The notes: generated by a model from the sequence alone, not told the origin. Shown: positions 5,196 through 13,033, counted from the stretch's first letter. The stretch is 32,000 nucleotides of DNA from Prochlorococcus marinus str. NATL2A (GCF_000012465.1 NC_007335.2:30001-62000); one strand, 5' to 3'. Program-made: numbers and translations.

Positions 5196-6782
5196 ATGGC
5201 TTCAATGATTTCAGCTGAAAAACGTAATCCAGCAATCGTAATTCTCGATTTTGGTTCTCAATATTCAGAATTAATTGCTCGAAGGATTAGAGAGACAGAG
5301 GTTTACTCATTAGTTATGAGTTACACAACATCTGCTGACCAATTACGTTCACTTAAGCCTAAGGGAATTATTTTAAGCGGAGGTCCTGGATCTGTTTATG
5401 AAGAAGGTGCTCCATATTGTGACCCAGAGATTTTTAATTTAGGAATTCCTGTTCTTGGTGTTTGTTATGGAATGCAATTAATGGTTCATGAGCTAGGAGG
5501 ATCTGTAAAACCTGCTGCTGGGAAAGCCGAATATGGAAAGGCTCCTTTAGAAGTTGATGATCCAACAGCGTTATTAACGAATGTTATTAGTGGTTCAACG
5601 ATGTGGATGAGTCATGGTGATTCAGTTCAGAAATTACCCAAAGGATTTGTCAGATTAGCTCATACTTCGAATACTTTAGAGGCTGCTATTGCTTTGCATG
5701 ATAAGAGCTTTTATGGAGTGCAATTTCATCCCGAAGTTGTTCATTCCACTCATGGAATGGTTGTAATAAGAAATTTTGTCTATGATATTTGCTCTTGTGA
5801 GCCGGATTGGACAACAAATTTATTTATAGATGAAGCTGTTTCTCAAGTACAACAACATGTAGGCGATAAAAAAGTTTTATTGGCTCTATCTGGTGGTGTT
5901 GATTCATCAACTCTTGCATTTTTGTTAAACAAAGCAATAGGACCTCAATTGACGTGCATGTTTATTGATCAAGGTTTTATGAGAAAAGGTGAGCCAGAAT
6001 TTTTAATGTCTTTTTTTGATGAAAAGTTCAAGATTAATGTTGAATACATCAATGCCAGAGAAAGATTTATTTCACAATTAAAAGGAGTAACTGATCCTGA
6101 GCAAAAGCGTAAAATTATAGGTAGAGAATTCATTCGGGTTTTTGAAGAAGAGAGTCTTCGATTAGGCCCTTTTGATTACTTGGCTCAAGGTACGCTTTAT
6201 CCAGATGTAATTGAAAGTTCTGGAACAAATATTGATCCAAAAACTGGCGAACGAATAGCGGTTAAAATTAAAAGTCATCATAATGTAGGAGGGTTGCCAA
6301 AAGATTTGCAATTTAAATTGGTAGAGCCTTTGAGACGTTTATTCAAAGATGAAGTCAGAAAAGTTGGTAAATCACTGGGATTGCCAGATGAGATTGTTCG
6401 AAGACATCCATTTCCAGGTCCAGGATTGGCTATAAGAATTTTAGGAGAGGTTACTCATGAGAAACTAAATTGTTTAAGAGACGCAGATTTAATTGTCAGA
6501 GAGGAAATTAATAATGCTGGCTTGTATAACAAAATTTGGCAGGCTTTCGCAGTTTTATTGCCTGTGTATTCAGTCGGAGTAATGGGAGATCAAAGAACTT
6601 ATGCTTGGCCAATTGTTGTTCGTTGTGTTTCTAGTGAGGATGGGATGACTGCTGATTGGTCGCGTTTGCCGTATGCAGTTTTAGAGAAAATTTCTAACCG
6701 GATAGTTAACGAAGTAGAGGGAGTCAATAGAGTTGTTTTAGATATAACAAGTAAACCCCCTGGAACTATTGAGTGGGAATAG
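5196..6782 (+). CDS. guaA: GMP synthase (glutamine-hydrolysing)
   Basis: GATase GVCYGMQ and HPEV motifs, ATP-PPase SGGVDSS loop, canonical C-terminus PPGTIEWE. Confidence 0.97.
6762..6782 (+). repeat. att core copy 1 (native 3' end of guaA, GGAACTATTGAGTGGGAATAG)
   Basis: Last 6 codons plus the stop of guaA. Repeated at 9220, 10186 (decayed) and 12032. Confidence 0.8.
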
Positions 6783-6803
6783 TTCAGGGTAGTAAAACGT
6801 AGT

Positions 6804-6826
6804 CCACCACTCAAAAAGGTGGTTTT
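6804..6826 (+). terminator. putative guaA terminator hairpin
   Basis: CCACC-actcaaaaa-GGTGG followed by TTTT. The stem is only 5 bp. Confidence 0.45.
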
Positions 6827-6842
6827 GTGTGGGTTTTGTTTG
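6821..6842 (+). repeat. tandem 11-mers GGTTTTGTGTG GGTTTTGTTTG, 38 nt after att copy 1
   Basis: Read directly; 9/11 identical. Followed by GTCACCTT GTCACCTT (6842-6857). Confidence 0.7.
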
Positions 6843-6861
6843 TCACCTTGTCACCTTCTCT
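6839..6861 (+). repeat. inverted repeat, left arm (TTTGTCACCTTGTCACCTTCTCT)
   Basis: Its reverse complement matches 9031-9053 at 22/23 positions. Confidence 0.8.
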
Positions 6862-6870
6862 GTAAAGACA

Positions 6871-6924
6871 TCGTAGATAGTTCATTTTCTCTACACCTGA
6901 ACCGTAGAGAACTTGTAGAGAAAA
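6871..6924. repeat. island palindrome cluster (TCGTAGA..TTCTCTAC-n9-GTAGAGAA-n3-GTAGAGAA)
   Basis: TTCTCTAC at 6887-6894 is the reverse complement of GTAGAGAA at 6904-6911. A second GTAGAGAA lies at 6915-6922. Confidence 0.7.
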
Positions 6925-7102
6925 CGTTGGAGAAAAAGTATTTATTTTGAAATAACTATTTTGCGAGATATGTTACTAAATTGACTACTTTTATAAGACG
7001 ACTTCTTACTCCTTTTTCAGGACTTCATCTTGTCCTCCTTTGAAATGTCAGGTTGATATAAAACAAAAGTTTATTTCTGCTCTATTCAACTATGACATAT
7101 TT

Positions 7103-7136
7103 ACGTAGAGAAATCGTAGAAAGGTATTGTTCTCTG
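7103..7136. repeat. island motif copy (ACGTAGAGAAATCGTAGAAAGG..TTCTCTG)
   Basis: The 16-mer GAGAAATCGTAGAAAG (7108-7123) is identical to 10349-10364. Confidence 0.7.
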
Positions 7137-7168
7137 AAAGATTAAATATTTTTATTCTGTGGAAATTG

Positions 7169-8911
7169 TCAATTCTCCGTTTTAGAAACCCAGAACTGAT
7201 ACATACTTAAGAAGGTCGTGGGATGTTTTTCTTCAAACTTTGCCCAGTTTTGTAAGTTTGTTTGCTTCCTATCTTCTGGGAAATAGTCTTCATATTTAGA
7301 TTTAATTGGTTTTGGAAGTAAGAATCCAAGAAAATTTAATTTATTTGATGTGAGAGTTTCTTGTAGTTGGTTAATGGTGAATCTATGTTCTTGCGTGTGA
7401 ACGCAAAGATCTCGGAATTCCGATAACGAATAGAAGTCAGAAATTGTTTTTAATGAGTTTAAATAGTTTAATTTACTCCCAATAACCTCTTGTCTAAAAT
7501 TACGAATATTTTCTTCGTTCGATTGAATTTTTTTATTGATAAAATAATTCCTTGCCTTAACAATATCTTTTCTTCCTAGTTCACTATATAAACCCAATTT
7601 AAGAAAACCATTATTTTTTAAAACCTTAAATAACATTCTCAAACCTTCTGAGGGATTATCCATATGGTGTAAAACTCCTGAACATAAAATAATATCAAAT
7701 TCTTCCTCTAGTAAATTAACTTTTAAGATATCCATTTGAATTAGTTCAACATTATTAATTCCAAGTTCATTCATCTTTCTTTTAGCATAAGAAATACTAG
7801 ATAAACTTATATCAATAGCAGTTATTTTAGAATTCTCATACTTCTGTGCTTCTAATATTTGCTTACCTGTTCCACATCCAGCAATCAGAACTTTTAATTG
7901 CCCATCTTGTAAAGTTTGATTTATATAATTAGGTTTGATGTCATTATTGATTTGACTGGTAAAAGATATTTTTAGACTTTTTGAATAATTTGCATATCTC
8001 CATCTAGGAAATGGATTTTCTTCATACTGAACTTTTACTTTTTGAGATATATTATCGTTTATAGTTCCTAACTTTTTGATATCATTAGATAATTCAATTT
8101 CTTGGATAGGTTCTTTTATTTGTAATTCTATCAGTTCTTTAAAACTTTTATTAGAAGAATTAATAAATTTTAAAGATGGAATCTGATCAAGAAGTTTATA
8201 TAGTGGAAAATAACAAGATAAAATCGAAATATTTATTTCACTTAATTGACCATCTCTACATCTTTCTATGATTGTATTAAGACACATATTTTCTTCTTCA
8301 GTAGATGAATAAACATAGTCGTTCAAGAAGCATTGCTCTCCTAATGCAGTAATGAATTGTAATTCTAAGTAATTAATAGTCTCTATATTACGAGAGATAT
8401 AATCGCACATATTTCTTCTTACTTTGGTTAGCAGTTTCTCCAGTTCAAGATTACAGAAGATTATCTTTTTAAATGCATTAATAATAACTTTATCATTGAG
8501 AAGTAATTTTATTTTTGAAAAATCTGAATCTAATTTTTGTAGAATACTGATTATTTCACCACTATATAAAAAATTAAATACATTTGCTAATTCTTTATGA
8601 GGCACATCATTTCTTTCTAGTAGAATATTTAATATATTTTTTAAGTTTGATTTGCTTAAATGAGATAGATCTGAATCTCTTAAAAGTCTTGTGATTAAGA
8701 TGTAATTCTTAGAATTTGTTGGATTGGTCTGAATTGCTTTTAAATAAGAATCAAATGCTTTATGAATTCTTTGCTCCTTAAAGGGTTTGGAAGCAGTATT
8801 TGTATTAATAGTGATATTTTCTTTGATTACTTCCAAAGTAAATGGAACTGGGAATGTAATGACTTCATAGACTTTCTTCTTTCTTTCTTCTTTTGGATTA
8901 GGTCTATCCAT
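7169..8911 (-). CDS. class I SAM-dependent methyltransferase with long helical N-terminal region (YEENPFPRW family)
   Basis: VLIAGCGTGKQ motif I, ..DIILCSGVLHH.. and YEENPFPRW. The first ~52 aa are homologous to the 10568-11776 product. Confidence 0.85.
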   Translation of the reverse strand: MDRPNPKEERKKKVYEVITFPVPFTLEVIKENITINTNTASKPFKEQRIHKAFDSYLKAIQTNPTNSKNYILITRLLRDSDLSHLSKSNLKNILNILLERNDVPHKELANVFNFLYSGEIISILQKLDSDFSKIKLLLNDKVIINAFKKIIFCNLELEKLLTKVRRNMCDYISRNIETINYLELQFITALGEQCFLNDYVYSSTEEENMCLNTIIERCRDGQLSEINISILSCYFPLYKLLDQIPSLKFINSSNKSFKELIELQIKEPIQEIELSNDIKKLGTINDNISQKVKVQYEENPFPRWRYANYSKSLKISFTSQINNDIKPNYINQTLQDGQLKVLIAGCGTGKQILEAQKYENSKITAIDISLSSISYAKRKMNELGINNVELIQMDILKVNLLEEEFDIILCSGVLHHMDNPSEGLRMLFKVLKNNGFLKLGLYSELGRKDIVKARNYFINKKIQSNEENIRNFRQEVIGSKLNYLNSLKTISDFYSLSEFRDLCVHTQEHRFTINQLQETLTSNKLNFLGFLLPKPIKSKYEDYFPEDRKQTNLQNWAKFEEKHPTTFLSMYQFWVSKTEN

Positions 8912-9030
8912 CTTCTCTTGTTTTTGCTCTCTTTTAGTTCTTACAAGTTTACTATTAATTCTTTCTTAAACTAGTTACTACTTACAGAGCGAGAATAAAA
9001 AGTAGGTCTATATATTATTTTTGTACCTAA

Positions 9031-9053
9031 AGAGCAGGTGACAAGGTGACAAA
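9031..9053 (-). repeat. inverted repeat, right arm
   Basis: AGAGCAGGTGACAAGGTGACAAA; 22/23 match to the reverse complement of 6839-6861. Confidence 0.8.
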
Positions 9054-9072
9054 ATGTAAGGTGGTGACAAGA

Positions 9073-9104
9073 AATCGTAGAGAAATACTCTACTAATTCT
9101 CTAC
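9073..9104. repeat. island palindrome copy (AATCGTAGAGAA-n12-TTCTCTAC)
   Basis: Perfect 8-bp arms: GTAGAGAA at 9077-9084 and TTCTCTAC at 9097-9104. Confidence 0.75.
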
Positions 9105-9150
9105 ATTTTATCGTTCCACACCAAAAAAACTAAAAAGTAATGGCATTTTC

Positions 9151-9172
9151 ACTTCCACACCACTTCCACACC
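9151..9172 (+). repeat. perfect tandem 11-mers ACTTCCACACC x2, 47 nt before att copy 2
   Basis: Read directly. A third TTCCACACC lies at 9114-9122. The reverse complement contains GTGTGG, as do the 6821 repeats. Confidence 0.8.
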
Positions 9173-9219
9173 GTATAATAAGGGGTGAAATCCGAGTCCA
9201 CCACTCAATTTTTTCCACA

Positions 9220-9240
9220 GGTGCTATTGAGTGGGAATAA
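9220..9240 (+). repeat. att core copy 2 (GGTGCTATTGAGTGGGAATAA)
   Basis: 18/21 identical to the guaA end, same orientation. Preceded by CCACTCAAT (9201-9209), which is the reverse complement of its ATTGAGTGG. Confidence 0.8.
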
Positions 9241-9260
9241 ATAATATTTAATATCTAATA

Positions 9261-10111
9261 ATGTCATCATTAGAGTTACAATTAGGTAGAGAATATAAGA
9301 GAAGAGAATTACATAATTTTTCTAGTGGGCAAAGGTAAGGAGGAATTTCTACTCCTCAGAAATATCCTTATATTTTAATAATTACTTCTAAGCGTGGACA
9401 AGAGCATGGATATGTTGATCGTTGGGTAGAAAATAATAATTTTTTCCTATACACAGGTGAAGGGCAAAGAGGTGATATGGAGTTTAAAGGAGGCAATAAA
9501 GCAATCAAATATCATAGACAAAATGATAAAAAAATATTTTTATTTCAGGAAACGAAAAAACCTTTATTGCATTAAAAGCAGAACTTAATTTTATTGATTA
9601 TAAGTATATTCAAGCTCCTGATACGGAAGGGAAGAATAGAAGAGCAATTCAATTTAGACTTCAATCCGTAAACGCAGAACCAGAAAGGGAAGTGGAACCC
9701 ATTTCAATTACGAAACTACATCTGAAACCTGATAAAACTGAAAGACAAGGTTTAGTAATTAGTAGAGTAGGGCAAGGATATTACAGGCAAGAACTTATTA
9801 AAAAATTTAATGGTAGATGTGCTGTCACATCGATAGATAGAGAGCAGATTTTGATTGCAAGTCATATAGTTCCATGGCGACTATCAACTGATGAGGAAAG
9901 ATTAGATGTAGAGAATGGGATTTTACTCTCTCCTCTTTATGACGCACTTTTTGATAAGCATCTAATTAGTTTTAATGATGATGGCGAAATTTTAATTGCT
10001 AATAGCATTAAAGATGACAACTTAAAAACTAATATTCGTCCAAATGCGAAGATTATAGTTACTGAAGGAATGAAGAAATATCTGTATCGTCATCGACTTT
10101 TGTTGAGATAA
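9261..10111 (+). pseudogene. disrupted SRA/PUA-like + HNH nuclease (type IV restriction-like)
   Basis: The reading frame from ATG 9261 has an in-frame TAA at 9336-9338 (GQR*GGIS). A -1 frame change at the A6 run (9555-9560) joins it to the 9692-10111 ORF. C-terminus: GQGYYRQELIKKFNGRCAVT...ASHIVPW...NGILLSPLYDALFD (HNH_2-like). N-terminus: FFLYTGEGQRGDMEFKGGNKAI (SRA-like). Confidence 0.7.
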
Positions 10112-10116
10112 AAGAG

Positions 10117-10138
10117 GTTACACGTATGTTATACGTGA
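10117..10138 (+). repeat. tandem 11-mers GTTACACGTAT GTTATACGTGA, 47 nt before the decayed att copy
   Basis: 8/11 identical. Also forms the CACGTAT-gtt-ATACGTG palindrome just after the HNH stop codon. Confidence 0.6.
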
Positions 10139-10185
10139 GAAAACTTTCCTTGAGACACTAGTTCACTACTCGATTATTTTTTGCT

Positions 10186-10205
10186 GGATTATAGAGTGGA
10201 AGTAA
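10186..10205 (+). repeat. decayed att core copy (GGATTATAGAGTGGAAGTAA)
   Basis: About two-thirds identical to the guaA end with a 1-nt gap. The left context TTTTTTGCTGGA parallels TTGTTTTGCTAGGA at copy 12032. Confidence 0.5.
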
Positions 10206-10243
10206 TAGTAACGTCTACTTTCCAGTGATAATTTGATTTATAC

Positions 10244-10326
10244 GGTTTTACGTAGGTTTTACGTGAGAGGTATGATGAGGATATAACTAGGGTTTTGAAG
10301 TGTCAGTTTTACGTGGGTTTTACGTG
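10244..10326 (+). repeat. two pairs of tandem 11-mers GGTTTTACGT(A/G); the first pair lies 38 nt after the decayed att
   Basis: Pairs at 10244-10265 and 10305-10326, plus a related GGTTTTGAAG at 10291. Confidence 0.8.
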
Positions 10327-10350
10327 GAACACTTTTACAGTCTCCATGGA

Positions 10351-10380
10351 GAAATCGTAGAAAGTTGATTTTCTCTACAC
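10351..10380. repeat. island palindrome copy (GAAATCGTAGAAAG..TTCTCTACAC)
   Basis: Contains part of the 16-mer shared with 7108-7123. TTCTCTAC at 10371-10378. Confidence 0.7.
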
Positions 10381-10437
10381 TTATAGAAAATTAAAAGCAA
10401 GAATTTCTTTTTTTGATTTTTCTATAAACTCACAATC

Positions 10438-10560
10438 TTAAATGTTTTGCAAGTAGTGAGTTTGTATTTTAGAAACACTGAACTGATACATGCCTGCGAA
10501 GTTCGTGGGATGTTGTTCTTCAAACTTTGCTCAGTTTTGTATGTTGGTTTGTGTTTTACC
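10438..10560 (-). pseudogene. fossil 3' end of a paralogue of the 7169-8911 methyltransferase
   Basis: 10468-10557 is about 80% identical by eye to 7181-7270. It translates on the minus strand as ..TNIQN*AKFEEQHPTNFAGMYQFSVSK.. against ..TNLQNWAKFEEKHPTTFLSMYQFWVSK.. The Trp codon has become TGA (10531-10533). Confidence 0.65.
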
Positions 10561-10567
10561 TTTTTAG

Positions 10568-11776
10568 TTAAACTCCTATTAATTTCACAGCAACTTGCTT
10601 TTCAAAATAAGAAACTGCCAACACTTCATAAGTTAAATTATTTTTAGAGCAAAATTCATTGAGTGCTTTATATTCATCCTGTTCCCAATTTTCACTGATA
10701 ATAAACTCATCAAATATTAAAATTGTATCTTTATCTATTACAGGTTTTGAGCAATTCAAGGCACAGAGAGTAGAAGAATAAAGGTCAGCATCAAAATTGA
10801 TAATTGATGCCATAGGTCTAGGTTTGGAATAAAAAGTTGGAAGGGTATCTTCAAATTTACCTGCTATAAATTCTCCACCCTCAATATTAGGAATGATCCC
10901 TTCTGCTGAATATGTCCCTTGTGCCTCGTGATGCCAATCTTCTGGTAGCCCTTCAAAAGTATCAAACCCATAACCTTTTTTGAAAGTATTAATTAGATAT
11001 CTAAATGAAGCACCCCGCCAAACACCAAATTCATAGAAAGGTCTATCTTTTTTGCTTTTTTTGGTCATACTGTCAAATAATGCCCATCTATAAAAAAACA
11101 ATTCAGGTAACTTCGGCAAATTAGCAACCCATTTAATAGATCGGGTTATAGCATGATCTTTATGAGTGGATTTCGTGAGATTATCAAATAATGATTGGTC
11201 ACCTTGATGTAATTTGAGCGCACTTAGATGGAGTTGTGCTTCTACATGATTTTCATCTATTTTTAAGACTTGATTTACCCTTTCCTCTGCTTCCTTAATA
11301 GTATTCGCTAATCCATATAAATTCCAAGCAGCACCTGTAAGATTAGGTTTAATTTTAATTGCTTTTCGTTGACAAATTTCTGCTTCTTCTAATTTACCAA
11401 GATCATTCAATATGATTCCCAGATTGGAATGTGCTTCTGCGTAATTAGGTTGCATTTCAATTGCTTTGCGAGTAGAAATTTCTGCTTCTTTTAATTTACC
11501 AAGTTGCGCTAATATTACTCCATAATTAGAAAAAACTCTGTGATCATTAAATCCTTCATTTATTAACTGTTGATAATATTTTTTTGCTTCTGCAATCTTT
11601 CCTTGTTTATGTAACATTCTTGCCTTATGAAATTTTTTTTCTTTAGATGGTTTAGACGGAGTTTGAGTAGTAATAGTGATATTTTCTTGATTTTCTCCTA
11701 AAGCAAATGAAATTGGAAATGTCTTTACTTCATAGACTTTCTTTTTTTTTTCTCCTTCTTGACTAGAACCATCCAT
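10568..11776 (-). CDS. TPR-repeat protein fused to a TylF/macrocin-type O-methyltransferase domain
   Basis: Three TPR units (AEAKKYYQQLI.., AEAHSNLGIIL..). C-terminus: FYEFGVWRGASF, FDADLYSST and ILIFDEF, typical of the TylF family. Confidence 0.85.
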   Translation of the reverse strand: MDGSSQEGEKKKKVYEVKTFPISFALGENQENITITTQTPSKPSKEKKFHKARMLHKQGKIAEAKKYYQQLINEGFNDHRVFSNYGVILAQLGKLKEAEISTRKAIEMQPNYAEAHSNLGIILNDLGKLEEAEICQRKAIKIKPNLTGAAWNLYGLANTIKEAEERVNQVLKIDENHVEAQLHLSALKLHQGDQSLFDNLTKSTHKDHAITRSIKWVANLPKLPELFFYRWALFDSMTKKSKKDRPFYEFGVWRGASFRYLINTFKKGYGFDTFEGLPEDWHHEAQGTYSAEGIIPNIEGGEFIAGKFEDTLPTFYSKPRPMASIINFDADLYSSTLCALNCSKPVIDKDTILIFDEFIISENWEQDEYKALNEFCSKNNLTYEVLAVSYFEKQVAVKLIGV

Positions 11777-11896
11777 CTTCTCTTATCTTTCTCTCTTTTG
11801 GTTTTGCTGATCTTACTCCTAATCTCGTCCCTTTCTAATTCTTTCTAAAATCATTTATTACTTTTAGAGGAAGGTTAATAAATATTTTCAATGAAC

Positions 11897-11907
11897 TTTC
11901 TACGATT
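11897..11907 (-). repeat. island motif copy, inverted (AATCGTAGAAA on the minus strand)
   Basis: Read directly. Confidence 0.5.
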
Positions 11908-11963
11908 ATTCAGAAAATCAACTCATAGAATAGAACTAACTCTGTTTATCTCTGAACTTTTTC

Positions 11964-11985
11964 AGTTTGTCACGGGTTTGTCACG
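11964..11985 (+). repeat. tandem 11-mers AGTTTGTCACG GGTTTGTCACG, 46 nt before att copy 3
   Basis: 10/11 identical. Related to the GTTTGTCACC repeats at 6838-6857. Confidence 0.8.
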
Positions 11986-12031
11986 ATCCAATAATCCTTG
12001 AGAATCCAGTTATATTCTTATTTGTTTTGCT

Positions 12032-12052
12032 AGGAACTATTGAGTGGGAGTA
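12032..12052 (+). repeat. att core copy 3 (GGAACTATTGAGTGGGAGTAA)
   Basis: 19/21 identical to the guaA end, same orientation. Confidence 0.85.
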
Positions 12053-12113
12053 ACTAGAACCTCTACTTTTCAGTTTTATTCATGTTTATTCTTGTAATTC
12101 TGATTTTAACGAC

Positions 12114-12136
12114 GTCGTAGAAATCTTTCTCTAAAC
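12114..12136. repeat. island motif copy (GTCGTAGAAATCTTTCTCTAAAC)
   Basis: Degenerate version of the ATCGTAGA..TTCTCTAC unit, located after the last att copy. Confidence 0.5.
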
Positions 12137-12295
12137 TTATAAATTTAATTTCTGATTAATTTTCAAACTAGAAACTTACTTTCTGCTCTGACCATGCGCT
12201 CGATTATTGCTTGCTTGGTTGAACTTTGTATTCCAATCAAGAATTAATTATGGCGAGGCTTCGAAAAAGACGTGATCATTTAAATAAGAGATAGT

Positions 12296-13033
12296 TTGGA
12301 TCAAATGTCATTTGAAGTTACTTACAATGGCGACATTCAATACATTAAAGTTTTCTACTCAACTGAAAAAACGAGAGCTGGAAAATACTATGGCGAGTTT
12401 TATAAAAAAATGGATGCATTAGCGAGTGACTTAAAACGCCTTAAACAAGAACTTGATGAAGATTGTGAAAAGGCAGCCAAGATTGCTAAAGATGCTGCCA
12501 ACAAGGCACTTTCTGAAAGATTTGGCTCACTTCGCTACATTATTGATGAGCATCTATGGGATCAAGACATTGTTATCAGCAAGATTCTTGACGATAGAAA
12601 AGAAGAGATGTTGGCTTTAGCACAGAAGACTTTTAATAATGAAGTTCTTCTTGAAGAGGATGGTGCAGAGGAATACAAAATCCACTTGGATGAAGGGGGA
12701 ATTGAAGTTGATGGTAAAAGTGTTGAGACATCGATAATGGAGTTTTTTGATTCTGACGACTACCACGAATCGAATGAGGCAAAACTAGAAAAATTGGAAA
12801 AACTGGATTGGTTTATCATCTGGTCGAGAACCGAGGCGGGAGAGTTTAGGACAGAGGGTGGACAACATGAGGGAAATTATTCATCAAAGGAATTAAATAT
12901 GGAAGATTGTTTGCTTACCTACAGAGATTTACCCCTTGTTAATCCCTCTAATGGCACGGACATCTTCAGTAATGAACTTGAAATTCATTTTGTAGATGAA
13001 ACCAGGGCATCCCTTGAGATAAGTGAATCTTAA
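12296..13033 (+). CDS. hypothetical, strongly acidic protein (probable start ATG 12305)
   Basis: 245-aa ORF with many D/E residues and a predicted coiled-coil stretch (LKRLKQELDEDCEKAAKIAKDAANKAL). No domain recognised. Confidence 0.55.
   Translation: MDQMSFEVTYNGDIQYIKVFYSTEKTRAGKYYGEFYKKMDALASDLKRLKQELDEDCEKAAKIAKDAANKALSERFGSLRYIIDEHLWDQDIVISKILDDRKEEMLALAQKTFNNEVLLEEDGAEEYKIHLDEGGIEVDGKSVETSIMEFFDSDDYHESNEAKLEKLEKLDWFIIWSRTEAGEFRTEGGQHEGNYSSKELNMEDCLLTYRDLPLVNPSNGTDIFSNELEIHFVDETRASLEISES

Follow-up and report, generated by a model that had tools for sequence, protein, structure and literature searches.

Downstream of guaA, the GMP synthase gene, the genome of Prochlorococcus marinus str. 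NATL2A carries an island in which head-to-tail pairs of 11-nt repeats (11-mers) stand at fixed distances from repeated copies of the guaA 3' end. We analyzed a 32,000-nt window that contains this island (GCF_000012465.1, NC_007335.2:30001-62000; all positions count from the first letter of the window), together with related loci from genomes and metagenomes. The 11-mer pairs are predicted, with a probability of roughly 0.8, to be arm-type binding sites of heterobivalent tyrosine integrases belonging to guaA-targeting, ~8-kb tycheposon-like elements of picocyanobacteria. We propose that these elements integrate and replicate themselves and that their target is the final 15 nt of guaA. What the window itself shows is more modest: its sites are fossils and do not make up an active system.

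Paired 11-mers at the guaA junctions

The attachment (att) core corresponds to the last 15 nt of guaA, that is, its last codons and stop (GGAACT ATT GAG TGG GAA TAG, read as ...GTIEWE-stop). About 15 nt, ATTGAGTGGGARTAR, are common to all core copies in the window and to attP forms elsewhere, and the core is conserved in 39 non-redundant loci. In core copy 1, the inverted repeats and spacer have the layout usual for a tyrosine-recombinase core (Table 1).

The whole window was scanned for 11-mers repeated head to tail with no more than one mismatch, near-homopolymers being left aside. Six loci emerged (6821, 8871, 9149, 10243, 10305 and 11964), where first-order Markov simulations gave 0.39 on average and never more than 3. 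The tandem at 8871 falls in CTT-rich coding sequence and has no relation to the rest, all five of which are at core junctions. No such locus was found in the remaining 27 kb of the window, outside 6821-11986, and no tandem of period 12-15 was found anywhere in it. Pairs of this kind are therefore not a common feature of the window irrespective of the att copies.

A preliminary description of the window had listed five pairs, all of which were recovered with the same positions and sequences when the window was re-read; its inventory was nonetheless incomplete, having missed the perfect pair at 10305-10326. Counted from the A of ATTGAGTGG, the pairs begin at +53 (6821), -75 (9151), -74 (10117), +53 (10244), +114 (10305) and -75 (11964). 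The constant spacing claimed earlier thus holds on both sides of the core (+53/+53 on the right, -75/-74/-75 on the left), and core copy 2 is indeed followed by no pair. The 11-mer sequence differs between junctions, as had also been described: five types are present, and the decayed core has a P pair of the GTTACACGT type to its left (10117) and a full set of four P' sites of the GTTTTACGT type to its right (10244 and 10305). Reading this core, at 10191, as an attP with one 11-mer type on both sides was dropped because the two sides carry different types. Four of the five types have counterparts in integrase-bearing loci (the L139 group, the L094 group, L088 and L087).

The same layout in related elements

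Relatives were sought with the guaA C-terminus in genome contigs, and at least three useful Prochlorococcus loci were among the matches listed. In at least three other Prochlorococcus genomes the core is repeated two to four times downstream of guaA, with tandem 11-mers at the same relative positions. One locus, L002 from a Prochlorococcus single-cell genome, has as its first insert a complete 7.6-kb element between two cores. Its order is core, two 11-mer pairs, int, small open reading frames (ORFs), a Rep-like protein, a 663-residue primase/helicase-like protein (DUF5906), a serine resolvase, an 11-mer pair and core. The 11-mers at both ends of this element are all of the GTTTGTTGCG type. 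Its int product is a 457-residue tyrosine integrase (PF00589 at 7.6e-10) with 99 homologues at 48-98% identity.

A metagenome profile scan for L002-type integrases left 80 loci, AT-rich and GC-rich ones among them, and the layout recurs in about 50 integrase-bearing metagenome loci. The spacing is thus conserved in homologous junctions from these metagenomes as well as from the other Prochlorococcus genomes. In intact relatives int lies directly downstream of the right-hand pairs; in the metagenome loci the core, where present, is 130-360 nt upstream of int. Across 25 attP-like loci the 11-mers map to -76/-65, +52/+63 and +113/+124 from the A of ATTGAGTGGGA, with the P pair shifted outward by ~11 or 22 nt (whole helical turns) in a few of them. 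Two matches are on the opposite strand from all the others, and three strays occur elsewhere within 400 nt on either side. The window offsets fit this map. The 11-mers differ from the core sequence and sit in both arms at fixed distances from it. Such a layout is that of an attP with a P arm and a P' arm.

At least 18 types of 11-mer occur across the family, examples being GTTTCACGTG, GTTTCACCCG, GTTACACGTG, GTTTTACGTG, GTTTTACTT, GTTTCCCGTG, GTTTGTCACG, GTTTGTTGCG, ACTACCCCGTG, ACTTCCACACA and ACTTCCCCGT.

Several loci capture the elements in different forms. Four of 8.3-8.4 kb (L100, L110, L111 and L160) are circular-looking, with terminal direct repeats of 77-123 nt that suggest circular excised or replicating molecules; tandem copies are the alternative. 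In L081, a single core connects the right end of the L002 element with its left end. Still other loci, in which the core is preceded by guaA coding sequence and the left pair is missing, are by this arrangement integrated attL junctions. Contig Ga0194117_10003261 (16.5 kb; L107/L109) carries two integrase copies ~8 kb apart, as a tandem or concatemer. Searches of a phage collection and of IMG/VR returned no relatives.

Covariation with the integrase N-terminal domain

If the pairs are arm sites, their sequence should follow the part of the integrase that binds them. We compared 11-mer distance with protein divergence in 44 non-identical integrases. The Spearman correlation was 0.67 for integrase residues 1-95, compared with 0.29 for the core-binding region and 0.30 for the catalytic domain. 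Multiple regression placed weight on the N-terminal term only (1.04 versus -0.07 and -0.25). In partial Mantel tests residues 1-95 gave 0.65 when the rest of the integrase was held constant (0/2000 permutations), and the converse gave -0.20. Correlation with the N-terminal domain was 0.60-0.67 for the three 11-mer segments and 0.18-0.49 for the spacers between them, so physical linkage is not the explanation. Other element proteins from the same loci followed the 11-mers less closely (Rep-like, 0.29; 54-63 residues, 0.29; 221 residues, 0.46) than did the integrase N-terminal domain (0.63-0.81).

An AlphaFold model of the integrase (pLDDT 84.6) predicts a separate N-terminal module, with strands at residues 11-20, 27-33, 53-56 and 65-68 and a helix at 74-93. 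The domains after it match Tn1549 and lambda integrases in Foldseek. From its position, its covariation with the 11-mers and the analogy with known integrases, we infer that this module binds the arms.

These results support two earlier suggestions. The tyrosine-recombinase arm-site reading of the preliminary description gains from the presence of int beside the pairs, the two-armed attP layout, the covariation with residues 1-95 and the integrase-bearing counterparts of most window types. That several related elements with different specificities used one core, as it had also supposed, agrees with the way in which the 11-mer types of the family vary together with the N-terminal 95 residues.

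Weighing the alternatives

A number of findings weigh against arm sites. No integrase was found among the window ORFs, so function in situ cannot be claimed for the sites there. Within each window insert the 11-mers at the left and right ends are of different types, and the type at 6821 has no counterpart among 83 related loci. The covariation is not one-to-one: L090 and L094 both have 11-mers of the GTTACACGT type, and their N-terminal sequences are visibly different. A 314-residue element protein also correlates moderately with 11-mer type (0.56). The isolated N-terminal domain had no significant match in a PDB sequence profile search or in Foldseek searches of PDB and BFVD, gave weak matches to DUF6538 only in Pfam, and aligned with residues 9-54 of lambda Int at E=0.039 and a probability of 1.3% (hhalign). 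Finally, int follows the two P' pairs at a distance of 70-300 nt, and these pairs may be regulatory as well, or instead.

This last point is the starting place for one rival, in which the 11-mers are sites for a recombination directionality factor or a transcriptional regulator, for example an operator at the int promoter. Xis-type proteins, too, typically have tandem head-to-tail sites (lambda X1/X2), and small ORFs are conserved in the elements. We nevertheless regard such a role as unlikely, since identical sites occupy both arms at core-locked offsets and integrated elements keep them at their far (P) end, from which int cannot be regulated. Moreover, the 54-63-residue proteins covary with the 11-mers at 0.29, against 0.71 for the integrase N-terminal domain in the same loci. 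A promoter scan found no sigma-70-like site in the P' arm of L002, so autoregulation of int by the arm sites is speculation.

Replication-origin iterons bound by Rep or primase, the alternative raised in the preliminary description, fit worse and are a little less probable again. Direct repeats one helical turn apart would suit iterons, the elements do encode replication proteins, and the correlation of the 314-residue protein may be counted here. Against this, the positions are fixed to the recombination core on both sides, with the replication genes several kb away; the Rep-like protein follows the 11-mers at 0.29; and a clustered motif that is independent of arm type, described below, is a better candidate. 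Functionless pairs born of chance duplication or slippage in AT-rich intergenic DNA might be imagined in a region of 26-36% GC that contains an unrelated tandem at 8871. The excess over simulation, the lack of pairs outside the island and the recurrence of the same offsets in dozens of unrelated contigs, GC-rich ones included, effectively refute this idea. None of these rivals explains both the symmetric, core-locked placement and the specific covariation with the integrase N-terminal domain. Integron attC sites were ruled out as well, given that there is no IntI-type architecture and that direct, arm-like repeats are seen in place of imperfect palindromes.

The clustered motif is (C/T)GTAGAGAA, with TTCTCTAC as its companion form. 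It often occurs as an inverted pair or 11-nt tandem, is unrelated to arm type, and is enriched ~5- to 10-fold in the three intact elements examined (L110, L160 and L088); in L110 there are 15 matches where 1.6 are expected. These CGTAGAGAA clusters are a better candidate for an origin iteron or operator than the 11-mers. Copies of the two forms lie at 6887-6922, 7104-7135, 9070-9105 and 10346-10380 of the window, at 455-520 of L110 and at 545-790 of L088.

Proposed mechanism and history of the island

Arm-type sites would act as follows. The C-terminal core-binding and catalytic domains of the integrase would act on GAACTATT GAGTGGG AATAGTTC, where the crossover presumably falls, with GAGTGGG as the putative overlap, while the N-terminal domain of ~95 residues would bind 11-bp sites one helical turn apart. 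The P arm would hold one pair of these sites (-76/-65) and the P' arm, shortly before int, two (+52/+63 and +113/+124); bridging between arms and core would assemble the intasome. After integration the left junction would read guaA-core-P' and the right one P-core-chromosome, with the guaA stop codon restored by the element. As lineages separated, the core would have been kept while the 11-mer and the N-terminal domain diverged together.

The window would record successive integrations at guaA followed by internal deletions, leaving three integrase-less inserts and five arm types at their original offsets. Inserts A, X and B are integrase-less relics, A and B being TPR/methyltransferase cassettes and X containing a broken HNH gene. 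Because the end types of each insert are mismatched, they appear to be chimeras in which internal deletions have merged what remained of at least five independent integrations. With no integrase in the window, its sites would be relics or, at most, cis-sites usable in trans. The 6821 pair is directly followed by a GTCAC box, like the fourth P' site of L002 and other intact elements, so the P' pairs at core 1 were probably fused, by a ~62-bp deletion between direct repeats. The segment 6822-6896 aligns with 10306-10380 as a direct repeat.

Other loci show further stages. Solo scars of 139-148 bp, in the order core-pair-core, occur in L003 (10586-10739) and L170 (39-201), where whole elements were apparently deleted by recombination between directly repeated P' and P pairs. 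The guaA island would thus grow and decay through successive integrations, deletions between direct arm repeats, solo scars and chimeric remnants. In L171 (Prochlorococcus MIT 0916, CP138980.1 760-782 kb), a 22-kb island holds eight guaA-type cores with at most one mismatch, all on one strand, with TPR/methyltransferase genes between them. It retains almost no 11-mer pairs and looks like an old, decayed array.

A more tentative idea, which we think possible but doubtful, is that the arm 11-mers serve as lineage-specific identity tags for competing lineages that share the guaA stop as target, the at least 18 types being read by an N-terminal fold not yet recognized as arm-binding. Provided that each N-terminal domain recognizes no arm type but its own, the types may be orthogonal. 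In that case each integrase in a tandem array would pair only its own attL and attR, and integrase-less TPR/methyltransferase cassettes with matched arms could hitch-hike on a cognate integrase in trans. The guaA island would then be an array of cassettes comparable in function to an integron, with a lambda-type intasome as its basis.

Two integrase-less single-gene cassettes with matched arms are compatible with both the identity-tag and the trans-mobilization readings, and are candidates for mobilization in trans. One, L001 10586-13388, has both ends of the GTTTGTCACG type; the other, the 2552-nt contig L168, has both ends of the GGTTTCCCGTR type, as in the circular-looking, integrase-bearing L100. 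We identified no attP-form contig of an integrase-less cassette, and L168, which ends in a core on both sides, is ambiguous in this respect.

Sequence comparison by itself yields a full map of the attP, with its core, six arm sites and accessory boxes, for small integrative elements that are widespread in marine and freshwater picocyanobacteria. The arm types, paired with N-terminal variants on a constant core, form a natural series that could help to decode arm recognition and could yield non-cross-reacting integrases for cyanobacterial engineering.

Comparison with known systems

Phage lambda has arm sites P1, P2 and P'1-P'3, and adjacent arm-site pairs are known in mycobacteriophage L5, P2 and HP1. 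In the lambda sequence record, Int binding sites are annotated to the left and to the right of the core. The guaA elements resemble a lambda-type attP in having a tyrosine integrase with an extra N-terminal domain and a ~15-bp core with inverted core-type repeats around a 7-bp spacer. They also share arm sites that are unlike the core, occupy both arms and form adjacent direct repeats of about one helical turn, with the P' sites beside int. Unlike lambda, they have six sites in three pairs, all in one orientation, and no solved arm-binding domain matches the ~95-residue N-terminal domain of their integrases, with its four strands and one helix. Their core is also constant while the arm specificity has diversified, which reverses the relation between lambda and HK022, where arm sites are shared and the core differs.

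The island also recalls the cis-mobilizable elements (CIMEs) formed by accretion at the attachment site of an integrative and conjugative element, as with ICESt1/3 of Streptococcus thermophilus. Like CIMEs, inserts A, X and B lack an integrase, have att copies at their ends and stand in tandem next to a functional target. Unlike in CIMEs, the mismatched left and right arm types argue against current mobility.

Tycheposons are elements of 10-20 kbp with seven tRNA or tmRNA targets, according to the portion of the preprint available to us (Hackl et al., bioRxiv 10.1101/2020.12.28.424599). The guaA elements share with them a Prochlorococcus host and a gene set combining a tyrosine recombinase, a primase/helicase and a small serine recombinase, and it is on this gene set that we liken the two. 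In both, tandem insertions and degenerate remnants build an island beside the attachment site. The guaA elements differ in being smaller (~7.6-8.4 kb) and in targeting the 3' end of a protein-coding gene instead of one of the seven tRNA/tmRNA genes. That portion of the preprint contains no mention of arm-type sites. While lambda-type arm sites are of a known kind, the literature searched neither describes a guaA-targeting tycheposon-like family nor links tycheposons with guaA or GMP.

The guaA 3' end is itself a known island target in Proteobacteria, for example for ICERspD18B (PMC7775301, citing Song et al. 2012). In the accessible part of that article, the direct repeat of the proteobacterial islands contains GAGTGGGA, the same conserved sequence as in the Prochlorococcus core, and the islands are large conjugative or resistance islands with P4-type integrases and AlpA (PMC7775301). 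In contrast, the picocyanobacterial integrases match no P4-type arm-binding Pfam family, and their elements are ~8 kb and non-conjugative.

Features of the window

The window has a GC content of ~33%. Its genes run in the order aminotransferase, cbiD, guaA, island, ion channel and PBP2, and no tRNA or tmRNA was found in its 32 kb. Among the matches listed, the closest guaA sequences came from Prochlorococcus single-cell genomes, with at most 91% amino-acid identity. We saw no strain variation over the island: of 23 contigs with the window methyltransferase, the six examined were 100% identical to the window.

Table 1. Positions of cores, 11-mer pairs, boxes and genes at the guaA island (SAM, S-adenosylmethionine)
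Feature	Position	Strand	Remarks
guaA (GMP synthase)	5196-6782	+	Pfam GATase 2.1e-46, GMP_synt_C 4.7e-46
Core copy 1 (attL type), GGAACTATT GAGTGGG AATAGTTC	6762-6785	+	8-bp inverted repeat around 7-bp spacer
TCCACCACTCAA box	6803-6814	+	Inverted copy of TTGAGTGG of the core; counterpart of family-wide TCACTCAA box at ~+40
P' pair, GGTTTTGTGTG/GGTTTTGTTTG	6821-6842	+	+53 from core 1
GTCACCTT x2 box	6842-6857	+	Family-wide GTCACnnnGTCAC after last P' site; period-8 tandem at 6839
Cluster of (C/T)GTAGAGAA / TTCTCTAC motifs	6866-6922	+	More copies at 7104-7135
Insert A cargo, 580-residue class I SAM methyltransferase	7169-8911	-	N-terminus common to insert B cargo
Inverted GTGACAAG x2 box, P arm of insert A	9028-9053	+	Similar box at ~-175 in L002
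Lone extra 11-mer copy, CGTTCCACACC	9112-9122	+	From sequence
P pair, ACTTCCACACC x2, perfect, ACTTCCACAC type	9151-9172	+	-75 from core 2; matches integrase-bearing L135, L139, L142, L143, L146
TCCACCACTCAA box	9197-9208	+	Counterpart of family-wide TCACTCAA box at ~-27
Core copy 2 (attR type), CTATTGAGTGGGAATAA	9224-9240	+	No P' arm after core 2
Insert X, HNH_2 endonuclease gene broken by in-frame stop codon	9264-10111	+	PF13391, 1.9e-13
P pair, GTTACACGTAT/GTTATACGTGA, GTTACACGT type	10117-10138	+	-74 from decayed core; 2 mismatches to P pairs of L094, L097, L103
Decayed core, TTATAGAGTGGAAGTAA, junction of inserts X and B	10189-10205	+	Sequence comparison
First P' pair of insert B, GGTTTTACGTA/GGTTTTACGTG, GTTTTACGT type	10244-10265	+	+53; matches L088
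Second P' pair of insert B, AGTTTTACGTG/GGTTTTACGTG, perfect, GTTTTACGT type	10305-10326	+	+114 from decayed core
AAATCGTAGA...TTCTCTAC inverted motif after P' arm	10346-10380	+	Repeat comparison
Insert B cargo, 402-residue TPR + TylF-like methyltransferase protein	10568-11776	-	ORF and domain search
P pair, AGTTTGTCACG/GGTTTGTCACG, GTTTGTCACG type	11964-11985	+	-75 from core 3; identical to L001 13289; 1 mismatch to integrase-bearing L087
Core copy 3 (attR type), CTATTGAGTGGGAGTAA	12037-12053	+	Followed by chromosomal flank

Besides the 11-mers, the family has a set of accessory boxes. In nearly all members the second P' pair has GTCAC/GTGAC boxes on either side; TCACTCAA stands at ~-27 and ~+40, GTGACnnnGTGAC separates the P' pairs, and GTCACnnnGTCAC follows the last of these pairs. 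Four such boxes are kept in the window (6803-6814, 6842-6857, 9028-9053 and 9197-9208). Its two TCCACCACTCAA boxes, each matching TTGAGTGG of the core in inverted form, flank the core as direct repeats and, with the adjacent CAGGG...CCCTG, could fold a hairpin right behind the guaA stop; a terminator or an accessory-factor site is possible. Near the ends of insert A, 6839-6864 and 9028-9053 form a 26-nt inverted repeat (92% complementary) made up of GTCACCTT x2 and AAGGTGAC x2.

The HNH_2 gene of insert X has an attR-type core on one side and the next P arm on the other, and its own P' arm is absent. The cargo proteins of A and B come from a very large Prochlorococcus TPR/methyltransferase family with 1723 matches at E<=1e-30 and several paralogues per genome. 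Their genes are alike over the first ~50 residues and the upstream DNA (77% DNA identity, 8756-8925 versus 11621-11790), and their downstream domains differ. No Rfam family matched within 6500-12600, so a 96-nt block in this region, at 7180-7275 in A and 10467-10562 in B, is not a known RNA. The block is 83% identical between the two inserts, overlapping the 3' end of the cargo ORF in A and lying just past the stop in B, and it is also present in L001 and L168.

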